A stretch of 64,000 nucleotides of DNA from sequence record PZ445554.1, one strand, 5' to 3'. Below, piece after piece: positions 2,119 to 40,733 of this stretch (position 1 is its first letter; each line of letters begins with the position of its first letter). The notes under the pieces were generated by a model. The model was not told the origin of the DNA. It was given only the letters and a program-made list of their open reading frames with translations, and ran no database searches. This DNA comes from a phage. A program made the translations under genes and the position numbers.

Positions 2119-2353
2119 CCTTAATACAAGATACAGCCATATCTCGTAATGATTTAGGGGTGTCATTATCTAAAATGTTGAAGTTAAAAGATACAGCCCA
2201 GTCAGTGCAGACCGTAACCTTTTTAATACAATTATCTTCAACTTCTAGTGGTTCAAACCAGTATTCAATAATTTCTTTATGACCAATATCATCTTTTACT
2301 TCGCATTCAAAATGCTGACTCATCATAACATTTTTAAATTCATCAAAAGTCAT
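2090..2353 (-). CDS. hypothetical small protein (46.2-like position)
   Basis: 87-aa ORF; stop/start overlap with gene 47 (2350) typical of T4 coupling. Confidence 0.45.
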   Translation of the reverse strand: MTFDEFKNVMMSQHFECEVKDDIGHKEIIEYWFEPLEVEDNCIKKVTVCTDWAVSFNFNILDNDTPKSLRDMAVSCIKDAYCEVFDI

Positions 2354-3369
2354 TGTGTTGCCTCTACATATAGCTGATTTGCATATTGAATAAGTGCTTC
2401 ACGATCAGAATCAGTGATGTCTGGAATTGCATTAATATACTCTTCCATTAATGTCTGAAGCGATTGAACTTCAACTTCTTCACTGTCATCTGACTCGACA
2501 GAGTTATCAATCTTTGACACAACTCGTAATGAATGCACAACTTTTTCTAGTTCAGATTCGAATTTCGTCAGATTTTTGTCTACTTCAGTTACTATAACAC
2601 GTACTGATAGATTTGTAAAATCTTTATAGTCAATTTTTCCTTTAAATGGATAATGAATTCTACGATGCCAGGTAGTATTGTTTGGAATAAATTCCATTCG
2701 TTCTGTTTCTGTATCAAACATCCAGAACCCACGAGGGTCATTCTCGTCACCTGCTGTTAGTGTCCATGGTGTCCCAATATATCTGACGTTTGCAGCCTCA
2801 GAAATAGTATGGAAGTGACCAGACCACACTTCTTTATAAGTCTTAAGGAAATCAGGTTCAAGACCGTGAGATTTCATTCCTTTATAAAAATAAAATCCAT
2901 TCAGTTCCCAGTGACCAACACAAAAAGAAGCAGATGAAGTTTTGATGTGTTCAAGAATTTCACCAGTATTTTCTTCGCACATCCAAGGAATTAAATCAAT
3001 CAAACACCCGTCAAAATCTACTGTAGTAGGCTTATCATATACTTTAACATTAGGATATTTAGCCAAAAGCTCAGTAGAGGCATTTGGATGCATTACATTT
3101 TTGTAGTGGAGATCGTGATTTCCTACAATAGTATGTAATGTGATTCCAGCGTCATCAAGCATTTGAACTATTTCACGGGCAAACTCCATAGTTTTATGTG
3201 TGATTGCTTTTCGCACATCAAAAATATCACCATATTGAATCCATACAGTAATTCCATTTTTCTTAGAATATTCTATCGCTTGCTTAATTCCATCAATTTG
3301 AATACCGCGAATCCACTCATCATCAGCTTTAACGCCTAAATGCCAATCACCCAAGTTTAGTATTTTCAT
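2350..3369 (-). CDS. 47: recombination nuclease subunit gp47 (Mre11/SbcD-like phosphoesterase)
   Basis: 339 aa; N-terminal LGDWHLG and GNHD calcineurin-like phosphoesterase motifs; adjacent to gene 46 as in T4. Confidence 0.93.
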   Translation of the reverse strand: MKILNLGDWHLGVKADDEWIRGIQIDGIKQAIEYSKKNGITVWIQYGDIFDVRKAITHKTMEFAREIVQMLDDAGITLHTIVGNHDLHYKNVMHPNASTELLAKYPNVKVYDKPTTVDFDGCLIDLIPWMCEENTGEILEHIKTSSASFCVGHWELNGFYFYKGMKSHGLEPDFLKTYKEVWSGHFHTISEAANVRYIGTPWTLTAGDENDPRGFWMFDTETERMEFIPNNTTWHRRIHYPFKGKIDYKDFTNLSVRVIVTEVDKNLTKFESELEKVVHSLRVVSKIDNSVESDDSEEVEVQSLQTLMEEYINAIPDITDSDREALIQYANQLYVEATQ

Positions 3370-3970
3370 GGTGTCTTTTCCATCCTAATTTAGCTGCTTT
3401 TGAAACCAGTTCTTTAATTTTTCCTTTTGTCCATTCAGGACCAGGAGGTTCATGACATAACATTTGCTTAACTCCGTTATTATACCATTTTTTACCTTTA
3501 TTATGTGATGAAGCTTTAAATTTATTTGACCTTCCTTTTGCATAACCTTCTGGAATATAAGGCAAAAAGGCAGATTTTCCTGTTAATGGATCATGTGAAT
3601 GTATATTTCCTTTACAATTATGAGAACCATATAATGGATGATTTTGTCCTTTATTATCTCTTCCAAATGAACCTTTTGGAGCAGCATATGACATATTAAA
3701 GAATAATGGATTTTTAACTGCATCATGCAATCGTTGATAATATAACTCGCATTTAATAGCTTCTTCACGCGTATCAAATTCAGCTAAAATGCATGAATCA
3801 AATAAGTGAGGATTATCTGAAAGCTCTTTATTATAAATTTTCTTATACTTTTTAGATAAAACTGAACCATGATATCCAGCTAAATGCCTATCTAAAGACG
3901 TAGATCCAATATAAAAAGGAGGAAGTTTATCTCCACTATATATTGTTAAATAAGTTATATATTTTTTCAT
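3347..3970 (-). CDS. GIY-YIG family homing endonuclease (Seg-like)
   Basis: 207 aa; N-terminus YLTIYSGDKLPPFYIGST..R..H...ILAEFDTREEA..E fits GIY-(8-11)-YIG with conserved Arg/Glu; basic Gly/Lys-rich C-terminus typical of DNA-binding linker; overlaps gene 47 start by 23 nt. Confidence 0.7.
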   Translation of the reverse strand: MKKYITYLTIYSGDKLPPFYIGSTSLDRHLAGYHGSVLSKKYKKIYNKELSDNPHLFDSCILAEFDTREEAIKCELYYQRLHDAVKNPLFFNMSYAAPKGSFGRDNKGQNHPLYGSHNCKGNIHSHDPLTGKSAFLPYIPEGYAKGRSNKFKASSHNKGKKWYNNGVKQMLCHEPPGPEWTKGKIKELVSKAAKLGWKRHHENTKLG

Positions 3971-5418: not shown

Positions 5419-5589
5419 TCCACATAATACGCCATACAGAGGCTCGTTAGAACTTTTAAATTTTATGCGCTTATATGTTATAGTTCCTTCTGCTTTAGCT
5501 TTATCATGAGACTCTTTAAAGCGTCTCATCATTTCCTCTTTAGAGGAACGAATTTTATTATAATCTATTTCAGAAGTCTGGGTGTTCAT
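5416..5589 (-). CDS. putative small protein (57 aa)
   Basis: Hand-translated MNTQTSEIDYNKIRSSKEEMMRRFKESHDKAKAEG...; start 3 nt after stop of upstream ORF; not in ORF track (<60 aa). Confidence 0.3.
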   Translation of the reverse strand: MNTQTSEIDYNKIRSSKEEMMRRFKESHDKAKAEGTITYKRIKFKSSNEPLYGVLCG

Positions 5590-5592
5590 CTT

Positions 5593-5799
5593 TCATAACT
5601 GCCACCATTTTTTAACTTGATAAGAATCAACCCACACTTTCATATTAGGGTCTGCTCTTACAATAGGAGGATTAACTTCTTTAATTGAACTATCATGGTA
5701 TTCTTTTTCAGAAATTTTCACACAAAGATGACCATTCAAAGATTCAGTAAATCCTGCATTAATTTTAAGACGCTTGAATTTTACGTGTGTAAGCATCAA
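5593..5799 (-). CDS. hypothetical protein
   Basis: 68-aa ORF in the a-gt/55 intergenic cluster of small early genes. Confidence 0.4.
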   Translation of the reverse strand: MMLTHVKFKRLKINAGFTESLNGHLCVKISEKEYHDSSIKEVNPPIVRADPNMKVWVDSYQVKKWWQL

Positions 5800-6082
5800 T
5801 CATATCCTCAATCTGCGATCTAGTAGTCTTCCAAAGAATACTAATGAGTTCATCGTTATATGGCTGTTTTAGAATATCCCGACTTTTCTTGATAGCATAT
5901 TCGTATTGAGCAAAATTATTATTTTCAGCTGCAATCTGAGCGTGCTTATAAAGACGATTCAGTTCGCGTTTGTTTTTATGCAATAACTTATTTGCTTTTC
6001 TTTCTGCTTCAAGACGGTTCTTTTCTTCAATAGAAGAAATAAGCTTTTCCACTTCATCATTAATTTCGGGTTTATCAGTCAT
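5765..6082 (-). CDS. hypothetical protein
   Basis: 105-aa ORF, charged/helical; tightly packed with neighbours. Confidence 0.5.
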   Translation of the reverse strand: MTDKPEINDEVEKLISSIEEKNRLEAERKANKLLHKNKRELNRLYKHAQIAAENNNFAQYEYAIKKSRDILKQPYNDELISILWKTTRSQIEDMIDAYTRKIQAS

Positions 6083-6083
6083 A

Positions 6084-6329
6084 TTATTTCTCTAATATAA
6101 AATAAAAATCATCATCTGTTAAATGATACCGATAGTTTAATTCTACACCATTAGATTTAAAAGCGGTATCATACGGATTTTCTGGATCAATATCAATGTC
6201 AAGAGCTAAAACCTCCCTGAGATACATTTTAAGTAAATAGGGAATAGCTTCAACTTCAGGTATTTCTTCCAAGAATCCGGAGAGGTTAATCGTTAGCCTC
6301 ATATAAAAAATCCAAACTAGGAGAATCAT
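6084..6329 (-). CDS. hypothetical protein
   Basis: 81-aa ORF; start likely an internal Met because it overlaps the end of gene 55. Confidence 0.4.
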
Positions 6330-6843
6330 CTACAACACTTTTCTTTTCAGCCCCCGGTGTTCTATAGGTTGATTCTTCGTAATGCGTCATTTTATCGTAG
6401 ATGTCTTGAATAAAAGTTTCATCTACTAACGCAACCATATCGTCGTCACGGCTGTCATAGACATTGTGAACGAAGTAACTATATTTCTTTGCAACTTCCT
6501 TACGTTCCTTTTTAATACGTTGGACGAATGCATTAAAACAAGCTTGAGTTATATATGCATGTGGGTTTTTATATTTCGTTTCATCAAAATTATGAAGCCC
6601 CTTAATAGAAGCTTCTATACCATCTGCAATCATTTCTTGTTTCCAAGATTGGGTGTATCCTGAAAAGTTGAAACGTTTAGATAAGCCTTCTGCAATAAGC
6701 ATAATGGCTAATCCGATAGTATCATTCTGACGAACTACTTTATTTGGGTCTTTATTATTTGCTAATTCTGTTTTCCAATCAATAATAGCTTGTAAAAGCT
6801 CTTTATTGTTTACGTAATTATATTTAGGCTTAGTTTCTGACAT
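6286..6843 (-). CDS. 55: late-transcription sigma factor gp55
   Basis: [30 protein letters not shown]... recognised as T4 gp55; 185 aa from second Met. Confidence 0.93.
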
Positions 6844-31249: not shown

Positions 31250-31389
31250 TTCTTCTCTCTAAGTTTGGGCCATTCCATGGCGCATGAATTGTCCATTTCT
31301 GTATTTACCCATTACCGCGCTTTGGCTCGACCTTATCACAGGTTGGCGGGAATCCCTCATAGAATCATGAGGTCCAGGTTGTTCCCATA

Positions 31390-31863
31390 TTATTTGAACG
31401 ATTTAACGTACTGAATAGAACCTTTACTATTCACGAAAGCGATTTTACCATTTTTATTATACATGGTAGCAGTACGTTGATAGCCATAAGTTTGTTTACC
31501 AGATTGATAACCAACTAATGCAAAATTATCTTCACCCATTTTATTCTGTTTAGCGCGAATGCGTTCATGACCATGTGCCATAAGAACCTTAGCATCACCA
31601 GTTGCAATGGATCGACGAGTTTTTTCATCTTCAACTGTATTAACAAAGTCGTCAAATGAATCAAATTTAGCATGAGATTTATTATACAATTTTCCATCTA
31701 CTGCATAATTATATCCCTGTACATCCATCTCAACTTCTGTACCATCATCCAATACAGCAGTGATTTTTTGACCTTTTTTAAATTTCAAAAGATCAGTAAA
31801 AGATTCAGCAATAATTTGAGAATTAATAGCTGCTTCAGTAATAAATTCTTGATATGTTTTCAT
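31390..31863 (-). CDS. internal protein-like (capsid targeting sequence-bearing)
   Basis: 157 aa; N-terminus MKTYQEFITEA matches the T-even internal-protein targeting leader. Confidence 0.6.
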   Translation of the reverse strand: MKTYQEFITEAAINSQIIAESFTDLLKFKKGQKITAVLDDGTEVEMDVQGYNYAVDGKLYNKSHAKFDSFDDFVNTVEDEKTRRSIATGDAKVLMAHGHERIRAKQNKMGEDNFALVGYQSGKQTYGYQRTATMYNKNGKIAFVNSKGSIQYVKSFK

Positions 31864-31872
31864 ATGTTTCCT

Positions 31873-32289
31873 TTAAATGTAAATATTTTTGCCGTAATAC
31901 TTGTACCAGTGTGGCTTCATTAAAATTTTTTCATCAAGTCGTTGTTGACTCAATTTAATAGCTGATTTGCATGGATTATAATCATTTTTCCATTCTGCTG
32001 GAATATCGCTGATGTCAGGAACTTCAGTATCTTTTATACTGAACCCGCGTTTTAAGCATTCCGTTATAATGTCTAATTGACGCTTTCGCAAAAATTCTAA
32101 CTTATCGTAAAAGAAAGTAACATGACCAGAACCTAAAATAAATTTAGAAGATATTTTAAAATCTTTAACGCGCTTACCGTTTGCCACATGCTTACGAACT
32201 ATACCAAAAACACGTGGCAATTCACGGTATTCTGCTATTAAATGTTGATCAGCAAGTTCAGATACTAAAGTCAAATTAATACGAGTCAT
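31873..32289 (-). CDS. denV: endonuclease V (pyrimidine-dimer DNA glycosylase)
   Basis: 138 aa; [43 protein letters not shown] recognised as T4 DenV. Confidence 0.92.
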
Positions 32290-32314: not shown

Positions 32315-32344
32315 ATACTATCACAATTCTAGGAGAAAGTAAAC
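32315..32344 (-). promoter_or_regulatory. T4-type early promoter upstream of denV
   Basis: GTTTAC-N18-TAGTAT (minus), GGAGGGA RBS follows. Confidence 0.45.
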
Positions 32345-32348
32345 AACT

Positions 32349-32879
<531 letters not shown>

Positions 32880-33335
32880 TTAAAAGAGGTTGTTCATTAT
32901 TCGGTAAAGTGAAGGACCCATCACATATTGCCACTGAGTACGAGGAATAAGAGCAAAAGCATCCATCTCTGGAATCATAACGCCATCTTTATTTTCAAAA
33001 TAAGACTCACAATAGCAATTTCTGAACATCTCATGCTCTACTGGAATCGTATAATAAAATAACTGTAAGTCTTTATTACTAGAATATTTAAATACACCTA
33101 GGTCTTCTAGAAGGTCTGGATTATAATTGCTAAAACCAGTCTCTTCTAAGCATTCTCTTCGTGCTGCATCTAGTGCGCTTAAATCAGAATTTTCTACGCG
33201 GCCCTTTGGAATATCCCAACGATGTGCCATCATTCCAGGCTTACGAGAACCAGTAACCCGACCCATAAATAAATCTTTATCTTCTGTCATAAAGATAATA
33301 CCAGCTGATAATGTTTTCATTTTAATTTCCTGCAT
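32880..33335 (-). CDS. nudE: Nudix hydrolase
   Basis: 151 aa; Nudix box GRVENSDLSALDAARRECLEETG. Confidence 0.85.
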   Translation of the reverse strand: MQEIKMKTLSAGIIFMTEDKDLFMGRVTGSRKPGMMAHRWDIPKGRVENSDLSALDAARRECLEETGFSNYNPDLLEDLGVFKYSSNKDLQLFYYTIPVEHEMFRNCYCESYFENKDGVMIPEMDAFALIPRTQWQYVMGPSLYRIMNNLF

Positions 33336-37412: not shown

Positions 37413-37489
37413 TGGCCAGGGTGAAAGGATTCTAACCTTTAACCTGCGGTTTAGAGGACCGCTACTCTATACAATTGAGTTACACCCCG
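37413..37489 (-). tRNA. tRNA-Arg (anticodon TCT)
   Basis: Cloverleaf: acceptor CGGGGTG/CACCCTG, D-stem ACTC/GAGT, anticodon stem GCGGT/ACCGC loop CCTCTAA, T-arm AAAGG-TTAGAAT-CCTTT, CCA encoded; unusual C33. Confidence 0.6.
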
Positions 37490-37615
37490 TAATTAGTTCA
37501 CAGCAATACCTACTCCAACAATCAAGATGTCTTCACACGAAATTAAGAGAAGAGTGATCAGTTCAACCCCTATAATCGCGTCAAGTAGATATTAATGTGA
37601 CAACTGTCACAAGTT

Positions 37616-37690
37616 TGGCGGACGTGATAGGATTCGAACCTATAACCAATCGCTTAACAGGCGATCGCTCTGCCATTGAGCTACACATCC
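37616..37690 (-). tRNA. tRNA-Asn (anticodon GTT)
   Basis: Acceptor GGATGTG/CACGTCC, D-arm GCTC-AATGGCA-GAGC, anticodon loop CTGTTAA, T-arm ATAGG-TTCGAAT-CCTAT, GCCA 3' end. Confidence 0.7.
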
Positions 37691-37694
37691 AAAT

Positions 37695-37781
37695 TGGTGG
37701 GGAGTGGTGGAGTCGAACCACCCGAGTCGCAATGACAATGAATTTACAGTCCACACCGCTACCTCTACGGGATAACTCCCC
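37695..37781 (-). tRNA. tRNA-Tyr (anticodon GTA)
   Basis: Class II tRNA, long variable arm; acceptor GGGGAGT/ACTCCCC, anticodon loop CTGTAAA, T-arm GGTGG-TTCGACT-CCACC, CCA encoded. Confidence 0.6.
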
Positions 37782-37794
37782 CTAATTCGTAATT

Positions 37795-37869
37795 TGGTGA
37801 CCCTGGGTGGAATTGAACCACCATCTGGCGATTATGAGTCGCTTGCTTGAACCTTCCAGCTACAGGGCC
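37795..37869 (-). tRNA. tRNA-Ile (anticodon CAT, lysidine type)
   Basis: Anticodon stem-loop GCGACTCATAATCGC identical to E. coli tRNA-Ile2; acceptor GGCCCTG/CAGGGTC; T-arm GGTGG-TTCAATT-CCACC; CCA encoded. Confidence 0.65.
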
Positions 37870-37870
37870 T

Positions 37871-37946
37871 TGGTGCTGATTGACGGAATCGAACCGCCGA
37901 CGTCCTCATTACAAGTGAGGTGCTCTACCTACTGAGCTAAATCAGC
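37871..37946 (-). tRNA. tRNA-Thr (anticodon TGT)
   Basis: Acceptor GCTGATT/AATCAGC, D-arm GCTC-AGTAGGTA-GAGC, anticodon stem CCTCA/TGAGG loop CTTGTAA, T-loop TTCGATT, CCA encoded. Confidence 0.7.
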
Positions 37947-37951
37947 AAAAC

Positions 37952-38041
37952 TGGCGGAGGCGATAGGATTTGAACCTATGAGTCGCCGGAGCGACTGCCG
38001 GTTTTCAAGACCGGTGCATTAAACCACTCTGCCACGCCTCC
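37952..38041 (-). tRNA. tRNA-Ser (anticodon TGA)
   Basis: Class II; acceptor GGAGGCG/CGCCTCC, anticodon stem CCGGT/ACCGG loop CTTGAAA, long variable arm, T-arm ATAGG-TTCAAAT-CCTAT, CCA encoded. Confidence 0.7.
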
Positions 38042-38043
38042 AG

Positions 38044-38117
38044 TCTCCGTGGCAGGATTTGAACCTACGACATTCTGCTCCCAAAGCAGACGCTCTACCA
38101 AACTGAGCTACACGGAG
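38044..38117 (-). tRNA. tRNA-Pro (anticodon TGG)
   Basis: Acceptor CTCCGTG/CACGGAG, D-arm GCTC-AGTTTGGTA-GAGC, anticodon stem TCTGC/GCAGA loop TTTGGGA; CCA not encoded. Confidence 0.65.
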
Positions 38118-38127
38118 TAAATTAAAT

Positions 38128-38201
<74 letters not shown>

Positions 38202-38206
38202 AAATT

Positions 38207-38293
38207 TGGTGCGAGAAGTGGGACTCGAACCCACAAGGAAATCATTCCGCAGCATTTTAAGTGCTGTGCCTTTACCAATTTGACCATTCTCGC
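38207..38293 (-). tRNA. tRNA-Leu (anticodon TAA)
   Basis: Class II; GCGAGAATGGTCAAATTGGTAAAGGCACAGCACTTAAAATGCTGCGG...GGGTTCGAGTCCCACTTCTCGCACCA recognised as T4 tRNA-Leu. Confidence 0.8.
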
Positions 38294-38294
38294 G

Positions 38295-38367
38295 CTGGGA
38301 ATAAAGGACTCGAACCTTTGCATCCTGGAATCAAAATCCAGTGCCTTACCAACTTGGCTAATTCCCA
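38295..38367 (-). tRNA. tRNA-Gln (anticodon TTG)
   Basis: Acceptor TGGGAAT/ATTCCCA, anticodon stem CTGGA/TCCAG loop TTTTGAT, T-arm AAAGG-TTCGAGT-CCTTT; CCA not encoded; 1 nt from tRNA-Leu. Confidence 0.7.
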
Positions 38368-39378: not shown

Positions 39379-39408
39379 ATAGTATCACTACCCTATCTAA
39401 AAGTAAAC
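39379..39408 (-). promoter_or_regulatory. T4-type early promoter inside an 11-bp inverted repeat
   Basis: GTTTAC-N18-TACTAT; -10 element lies in loop of perfect inverted repeat TAGATAGGGTA/TACCCTATCTA (39368-39399). Confidence 0.5.
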
Positions 39409-39642
39409 TTATTTTTTACGAAAAATTGATTTATTTTCTGCTGCCCATTTTTCAATAACTGCAGCAGGACCAGTAACAACAATTTTATCACCGTAATCTT
39501 CTGCGGCGAGTTGACCGAAATTATCTAATGCATCACGAAGAACTCCATGAGGCATTTCACCCATTTTATCTTTCTTGCCAGTGTAAATAAACTCAACTTT
39601 TACATCAGCAGTTTCAGCAATAAATTCTTGGTAAGTTTTCAT
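39409..39642 (-). CDS. internal protein-like (IPI-type position, capsid targeting leader)
   Basis: ORF 39409..39654; from MKTYQEFIAE 77 aa; leader matches T-even internal-protein capsid targeting sequence. Confidence 0.6.
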   Translation of the reverse strand: MKTYQEFIAETADVKVEFIYTGKKDKMGEMPHGVLRDALDNFGQLAAEDYGDKIVVTGPAAVIEKWAAENKSIFRKK

Positions 39643-39676: not shown

Positions 39677-39706
39677 ATAGTATCACAACTAAAACCCTAT
39701 GTAAAC
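39677..39706 (-). promoter_or_regulatory. T4-type early promoter inside inverted repeat
   Basis: GTTTAC-N18-TACTAT; flanked by ATAGGGT/ACCCTAT; 30-nt upstream block GTAAACAACTTTGTGAAATTATTTTAAATC repeated at 40031. Confidence 0.5.
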
Positions 39707-39718
39707 AACTTTGTGAAA

Positions 39719-39976
39719 TTATTTTAAATCTTCTAATCGTTTCTTCATCTTAGAACCGTTCTTAGCGATTTCGCCTGCATCAGAGCATAATGCTAAAAGC
39801 GCTTTAACTTTAGTTTGATCTCCTTTAAAAGATGAAGGATCAACAGCAGCAGCAAGTTCTTTAATACGAGAGAAAAGGCGCTCAGCTTCAGCTAAAGCCA
39901 TTCCAAGCTTTACTTCCATACCGTGGGAAGATTCAGTAATAGTAGTTTTTGTAGCAAACTCTTTGAAAGTTTTCAT
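39719..39976 (-). CDS. internal protein-like (capsid targeting leader variant)
   Basis: 85 aa; N-terminus MKTFKEFATK resembles the internal-protein leader; helical. Confidence 0.55.
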   Translation of the reverse strand: MKTFKEFATKTTITESSHGMEVKLGMALAEAERLFSRIKELAAAVDPSSFKGDQTKVKALLALCSDAGEIAKNGSKMKKRLEDLK

Positions 39977-40006: not shown

Positions 40007-40036
40007 ATAGTATCACTACCTCATCAGTATGTAAAC
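40007..40036 (-). promoter_or_regulatory. T4-type early promoter inside inverted repeat
   Basis: GTTTAC-N18-TACTAT; flanked by TGATGAG/CTCATCA inverted repeat. Confidence 0.5.
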
Positions 40037-40048
40037 AACTTTGTGAAA

Positions 40049-40733
<685 letters not shown>

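Follow-up and report, generated by a model that had tools for sequence, protein, structure and literature searches.

The window, a 64,000-nucleotide stretch of phage DNA (PZ445554.1), contains three genes whose products begin with MKTYQEF or MKTFKEF, that is, with the capsid-targeting sequence MKT(Y/F)(Q/K)EF of the T-even internal proteins (IPs). A six-frame scan of the 64 kb for the pattern MK[TS][YFWL].[ED][FYL] returned exactly three leader-bearing ORFs, which encode 157, 85 and 77 aa and start with MKTYQEFITEA, MKTFKEFATKTTITES and MKTYQEFIAET, respectively. All three genes sit at one of two IP loci, the first running from e to vs.8 and the second from 57B to trna.4; the loci are about 7 kb apart, with the tRNA cluster in between (Table 1). 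For comparison, the T4 orders are e-ipIII-ipII-denV-vs.8 and 57B-ipI-trna.4. The original prediction had described e and denV as adjacent, a 157-aa leader-bearing gene downstream of denV, and two further leader-bearing genes in the ipI locus, each with its own early promoter. This description held, as did its comparison with the T4 gene order and its recognition, from the sequence motif, of a capsid-targeting leader on all three proteins.

Table 1. Features of the two internal protein loci, each listed in minus-strand order. Leaders are predicted; the residue that follows each predicted cut is given after the slash.
Feature	Position	Strand	Basis or remark
nudE	32880-33335	minus	upstream of e
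Two TATAAATA late-promoter motifs	32857-32864, 32870-32877	minus	motif scan; just upstream of e
Gene e, T4-type lysozyme, 164 aa	32349-32843	minus	Pfam Phage_lysozyme; aligned with T4 and RB51 e; upstream boundary of first locus
Early promoter/stem-loop (PeSL) between e and denV	32315-32344	minus	exact pattern match; counterpart of the T4 pre-ipIII promoter
denV, endonuclease V/pyrimidine-dimer glycosylase, 138 aa	31873-32289	minus	Pfam Pyr_excise, phrog_1183; alignment with T4 and RB51
Shared 5' boundary of Ip4 cassette	31840-31890	minus	51 of 51 nt identical to T4 ipII 5' UTR plus leader
Ip4 leader MKTYQEFITE/A, codons 1-10	31834-31863	minus	predicted
Ip4 internal protein gene, 157 aa	31390-31863	minus	DUF7412, phrog_3155, RB51 Ip4
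Spacer 3' of Ip4, 140 nt	31250-31389	minus	holds the 33-aa ORF
33-aa ORF (MRDSRQPVIRSS...)	31259-31360	minus	matches T4 vs.8 N-terminus
vs.8-like gene, 179 aa	30710-31249	minus	phrog_1488; RB51 vs.8 in same position; downstream boundary of first locus
57B, Acb1 anti-CBASS phosphodiesterase family	40049-40507	minus	Pfam Acb1 PF23474, E=2.7e-60; T4 57B position; upstream boundary of second locus
PeSL-A, early promoter/stem-loop before Ip5	40007-40036	minus	TTTACA-17-TACTAT, extended -10 TG
Ip5 leader MKTFKEFATKTTITE/S	39932-39976	minus	predicted
Ip5 internal protein gene, 85 aa	39719-39976	minus	T4 ipI slot; phrog_3499, RB51 Ip5, PST ipV
PeSL-B left copy, early promoter/stem-loop before Ip6	39677-39706	minus	pattern match, repeat
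Ip6 leader MKTYQEFIAE/T	39613-39642	minus	predicted
Ip6 internal protein gene, 77 aa	39409-39642	minus	phrog_8111, PST ipVI
PeSL-B right copy, early promoter/stem-loop before trna.4	39379-39408	minus	pattern match, shared GTGATACTATTACCCTATC
trna.4 homologue, 61 aa	39165-39350	minus	phrog_1692; same position in T4, RB51 and PST; downstream boundary of second locus

At the first locus the gap between e and denV is 59 nt and holds no IP gene, and the Ip4 gene starts 9 nt past the denV stop codon. Alignment with T4 shows that the sequence beginning GGGAACAACCTGGACCTCATG, which lies directly after denV in T4, lies directly after Ip4 in the window. The GC-richer 140-nt spacer that follows Ip4 was considered as a candidate RNA element and rejected, as the alignment identifies it with the 5' end region of T4 vs.8. 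In the window the vs.8 region consists of the 33-aa and 179-aa ORFs, and it is likewise split in RB51, whereas in T4 the same 5' sequence begins one longer vs.8 gene.

The second locus holds Ip5 in place of T4 ipI, followed by an Ip6 cassette that is extra in comparison with T4 and RB51 but is present in T6 and PST. The gene product of 57B matches the Acb1 family, so that a known counter-defence gene adjoins the IP locus. The stretch between the two loci carries ten tRNA genes on the minus strand (37413-38367; Arg, Asn, Tyr, Met/Ile-CAU, Thr, Ser, Pro, Gly, Leu and Gln), and the segB homing-endonuclease gene is absent from this cluster. The T4 cluster differs in having eight tRNA genes and, after tRNA-Arg, a segB insertion. 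The source of the window is an ordinary Tequatrovirus (T4-like phage), and the 20 kb round the cassettes shows 96-97% identity to many phages, for example REP3, JK38, vB_Eco_Some and RB14.

Sequence comparisons gave clear family assignments for the three proteins. The 157-aa protein is 99.4% identical to RB51 Ip4, matches Pfam DUF7412 over residues 1-157 of 158 (E=5.7e-96, 319 bits against a cut-off of 27) and matches phrog_3155, 'internal virion protein', over its full length (E=6e-102). The 85-aa protein shares 96.5% identity with RB51 Ip5, whose counterpart is labelled ipV in the PST annotation, and matches phrog_3499, 'internal head protein', over residues 1-85 of 85 (E=1.2e-49). For the 77-aa protein the match is to phrog_8111 (residues 1-77 of 77, E=1.2e-52); it corresponds to the annotated ipVI of PST and to the same gene in T6, the locus being 96.9-97.5% identical to those two phages, and its relatives are named 'Ip6 putative internal head protein' in UniRef and in the top BFVD match. 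By these similarities the three genes are the named Ip4, Ip5 and Ip6, gene names that are already annotated in RB51, PST, wV7 and others. Repoila et al. are reported to have named the T-even family of Ip4, Ip5 and Ip6 in 1994, and polymorphism of the T-even IP loci, the feature described here, has been known since that year.

The three T4 proteins are not among them. When T4 IPI, IPII and IPIII were compared with the window by tblastn the alignments were confined to the leaders, and BLASTP of the mature parts with leaders removed gave no significant match (best E 0.047 in a six-sequence database). Orthology to T4 IPI, IPII or IPIII was accordingly rejected, the similarity ending at the leader in both searches. 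A weak tblastn match of the IPIII leader at 2731-2847 was also dismissed, as a chance match inside the gene for a 339-aa SbcD-like nuclease subunit (probably gene 47). The alignment to known IP families that the original prediction had proposed thus cuts both ways: it bears out that these are not the T4 proteins, as full-length orthology is replaced by a likeness limited to the leader, and it removes the claim of a novel set, as Ip4, Ip5 and Ip6 already have names and are found in hundreds of Tequatrovirus genomes.

How common the cassettes are was measured in a collection of 50,697 phage records. Mature Ip4 was found in 471 records (292 of them at at least 99% identity), mature Ip5 in 495 and mature Ip6 in 231; T4 IPI was found in 291. 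The contiguous e-denV-Ip4 layout was counted in 289 records and that of Ip5 plus Ip6 in 223, whereas the T4 denV-ipII-ipIII layout occurs in 31. With 289 records showing the layout of the window against 31 with that of T4, it is T4 that is the unusual one. Instead of 'rearranged', it is better to say that cassettes have been gained, lost and replaced at two polymorphic loci that were already known. REP2/REP3 and vB_EcoM_OE5505 also carry the trio of Ip4, Ip5 and Ip6 in these positions, and a scan of the whole 168-kb REP3 genome found IPI, IPII and IPIII absent.

Several other arrangements were seen in these comparisons. The first locus of PST reads e-ipIII-ipIV-vs.8, without denV or ipII (PST locus piece 5427-6520). 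In T6 e abuts regB, and denV, any IP gene and vs.3-vs.8 are missing from this locus (T6 locus piece 3013-3507, 2490-2951). REP3 carries on the minus strand, at 101459-101623 of its record, a 54-aa ORF beginning MKTYKEFIKEDMVAGDSGG with a leader-like N-terminus and a lysine/glutamate-rich tail, which adjoins the DNA primase gene; it is annotated as hypothetical and does not occur in the window.

Each of the three leaders is closed by an (L/I)-x-E motif, namely ITE10/A in Ip4, IAE10/T in Ip6 and ITE15/S in Ip5, from which the cleavage sites are predicted. The T4 proteins IPI, IPII and IPIII show the same I-x-E leader end. The 10-residue leaders of IpII and IpIII are annotated as removed in T4 record X04567, and for IPI, with ITE19/A, the mature IPI* of 76 residues fits cleavage after ITE19 (PMC3012670). 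The predicted mature proteins would be 147 aa with a pI of 9.1 for Ip4, 70 aa with a pI of 9.2 for Ip5 and 67 aa with a near-neutral pI of 6.5 for Ip6.

Within the first 20 residues of Ip4 (31804-31863), Glu10 and Glu20 are both invariant in the family alignment. Glu20 stands in a conserved I/M/L-x-E context followed by S or A, which makes it a second possible prohead-protease site. A cut there would give Ip4 a 20-residue leader, to be compared with the 19-residue leader of T4 IPI, and this second hydrophobic-x-E site might signal a longer leader that is processed in two steps.

Could these ORFs be decaying relics that are neither packaged nor functional? They are short and, by analogy with T4, non-essential, and we found nothing more specific that would point this way. 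On the other side, the reading frames are unbroken, their Shine-Dalgarno sequences and promoters are good, and the ORFs are 95-100% conserved across hundreds of genomes. Ip4 has a narrow family of 14 clusters, every one of them from T4-like phages, and its homologues at 61-82% identity retain 64 invariant columns, the leader Glu included. We regard decay as extremely improbable.

We then considered the signals that flank the cassettes. The T4-early pattern GTTTAC-N15-TGATANTAT has 9 matches in the whole window against 0.16 expected, all on the minus strand, and four of the 9 are cassette borders, lying before denV, Ip5, Ip6 and trna.4. A generic sigma-70 scan picked out TTTACA-17-TACTAT with an extended -10 before both ipI-locus genes; as a whole, however, little could be learned from scanning for generic sigma-70 promoters and terminators, the counts being at the level of shuffled sequence, and the T4-specific pattern was needed. 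An inverted repeat surrounds the -10 element at each of the four border promoters. The predicted hairpins differ in strength, with -18 kcal/mol (z -5.0) at the trna.4 promoter and -13.7 kcal/mol (z -3.1) at the Ip6 promoter, whereas those at the denV promoter (-9.0 kcal/mol, z -1.6) and the Ip5 promoter (z -0.7) are weak and no better than in shuffled sequence. The borders thus carry the elements of a PeSL (a TTTACW-N17-TAYWAT promoter and a stem-loop, with Shine-Dalgarno sequence and start codon, recurring from border to border), with strong hairpins at two of the four sites.

The scan with the T4-early pattern found no promoter belonging to the 157-aa Ip4 gene itself, and Ip4 is co-transcribed with denV from the early promoter between e and denV. 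Just ahead of e there are two TATAAATA late-promoter motifs. Since this motif is not enriched over the window as a whole (11 found, 11.3 expected), it is only the position of the two copies that is suggestive; from that position they could drive late read-through transcripts of e, denV and Ip4.

Alignments with T4, RB51 and T6 show that every cassette junction falls in repeated sequence. The 59 nt that separate e from denV are the counterpart of the T4 spacer between e and ipIII, with a 22-nt exact core, GAATTGTGATAGTATATTCACA. As the T4-type ipIII promoter/stem-loop is here joined to the ribosome-binding site of denV, about 1.07 kb with ipIII and ipII is absent. At the 5' side of the Ip4 cassette the 51-nt shared block covers the last 18 nt of denV and the 9-nt Shine-Dalgarno spacer and extends 24 nt into Ip4; it matches the T4 locus piece at 2246..2196 and includes a 39-nt exact match to the 5' end of ipIII. 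The last denV codons and the stop codon are supplied by the conserved 5' UTR of an IP cassette, placing the junction inside the denV reading frame, and the C-terminus of DenV reads GKNIYI in the window where T4 has GKAIYA, each directly before the stop. The Ip4 cassette is situated exactly between the denV stop codon and GGGAACAACCTGG, which in T4 directly follows denV.

At the second locus Ip5 takes the place of ipI from the promoter element that follows 57B to the next such element. PeSL-A is near-identical in the window, T6, RB51 and T4. 57B and Ip5 are each followed by the same direct repeat (GATTTAAAATAATTTCACAAAGTTGTTTACA, at least 31 nt long), in which their final codons and stop codon are included. 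The two PeSL-B copies share GTGATACTATTACCCTATC, so that the Ip6 cassette is bracketed by them.

These arrangements are consistent with a model in which cassettes would be gained, lost and swapped through homologous recombination between PeSLs or between shared 5' UTR-leader repeats. We infer such exchange from its end products in the sequence, and it fits the published model. The PeSL consensus given for the PST/T4 pair is the one found here, TTTACW-N17-TAYWAT, and PST and T4 were reported to differ at five IPs (PMC4122927). The same article names Repoila et al. 1994 as the first to have observed shuffling at the IP locus (PMC4122927). Recombination mini-circles have been sequenced, and their crossovers lay downstream of the -10 element and ahead of the start codon (PMC2839356).

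The function of Ip4, Ip5 and Ip6 is approached through their T4 relatives in position. By analogy with T4, the leader would carry each IP into the scaffold core of the prohead, where the prohead protease gp21 would cut it off after I-x-E; the mature small protein would stay in the head with the DNA and would be injected together with it. Once in the host, Ip4, Ip5 and Ip6 would neutralise a nuclease that attacks glucosyl-hydroxymethylcytosine DNA, and on the analogy with T4 Ip1, Ip2 and Ip3 we consider this their most likely role. Mature IPs of T4 enter the host along with the DNA. Ip1, Ip2 and Ip3 each inactivate a single GmrSD type IV restriction enzyme, a different one for each protein, and do not cross-protect (PMC12373910), and the IPs as a group have been described as a diverse defence set of which the capsid-targeting sequence is the sole common part (PMC3012670). 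As Ip1, Ip2 and Ip3 each disable a GmrSD of their own, it is reasonable to expect, as the original prediction did, that a different IP set would bring different anti-restriction specificities.

Predicted structures offered no clue to a nuclease-inhibitor role. No meaningful sequence match to a solved structure was found for any of the three proteins. For Ip4 the AlphaFold2 model, built on an alignment of 13 sequences, was too poor to support a fold search (mean pLDDT 51); that of Ip6 was acceptable (pLDDT 82) and shows a ferredoxin-like beta-alpha-beta fold, a generic fold with no informative structural neighbours. Ip4, Ip5 and Ip6 are unrelated to each other in sequence and in predicted fold.

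The charge of the mature proteins raises the question of a mainly structural function, in which Ip4, Ip5 and Ip6 would neutralise charge and aid the condensation and ejection of DNA without a specific host target. Mature Ip4 and Ip5 are basic, like T4 IPII and IPIII, and lysines of internal proteins touch DNA phosphates in the T4 head (PMC3012670). The additional ip genes tested also gave no GmrSD target (PMC12373910). Mature Ip6, however, is near neutral, and all three T4 IPs have specific targets (PMC12373910). Furthermore, unrelated families with rapid turnover among very close phages are the pattern of an arms race rather than of a structural component, and we regard a purely structural role as quite unlikely.

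The same screen, in which ten ip genes were set against five further active GmrSD systems and gave no new inhibition (PMC12373910), is the one direct published test of function that we found, and its negative outcome speaks against the role proposed above. It also bears on another possibility, namely that Ip4, Ip5 and Ip6 are injected anti-defence proteins directed at systems other than GmrSD, such as other modification-dependent nucleases or abortive infection. The differences in sequence and predicted fold among the three proteins agree with this, as does the presence of the counter-defence gene Acb1/57B beside the ipI locus. Against it, every IP of known target (Ip1, Ip2 and Ip3) acts on a GmrSD variant, and the diversity of GmrSD is very large while the sample tested so far is small. 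Taken together these points leave an account of this kind possible but on the doubtful side, and the narrower statement that Ip4, Ip5 or Ip6, once injected, inhibits a host defence of a non-GmrSD type seems to us somewhat unlikely. If it were true, these common cassettes would be handles for finding a new pair of defence and counter-defence.

Collectively, we consider it highly probable that the window comes from a Tequatrovirus with two known polymorphic IP loci, in which Ip4 replaces ipIII and ipII, and Ip5 and Ip6 replace ipI, with the proposed repeat-mediated exchange and the proposed role of the injected proteins against nucleases. Ip4, Ip5 and Ip6 are widespread, and all three T4 IPs proved to be specific inhibitors of type IV restriction. 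Knowledge of the targets of Ip4, Ip5 and Ip6 would aid the prediction and engineering of host range in therapeutic T4-like phages.

In comparison with T4 Ip1, Ip2 and Ip3, the proteins of the window are alike in having an I-x-E leader, in their small size, in the two slots that they occupy and in the type of early promoter, but differ in their mature parts, between which there is no detectable sequence similarity. The cassette borders resemble those of PeSL shuffling (Arbiol et al. 2010; Comeau et al. 2014), in that TTTACA-N17-TACTAT with an inverted repeat, a Shine-Dalgarno sequence and ATG flank the cassettes, and the indel junctions occupy the interval from the -10 element to the start codon, where the crossovers of the sequenced PeSL mini-circles also lie. 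Two differences from that system were seen. The published figure legend for PST places the inverted repeat upstream of the promoter, whereas in the window the repeat encloses the -10 element; and at the 5' junction of Ip4 the shared sequence is the IP 5' UTR and leader rather than a PeSL. The closest likeness is to the Ip4, Ip5 and Ip6 of T2, T6, RB51, RB70 and PST, which have 96-100% amino acid identity to those of the window with the same loci, leaders and promoters, and show no substantive difference from them. The window thus joins a first locus of the RB51/T2 type (denV-Ip4) to a second locus of the T6/PST type (Ip5 plus Ip6), a combination that already exists elsewhere.
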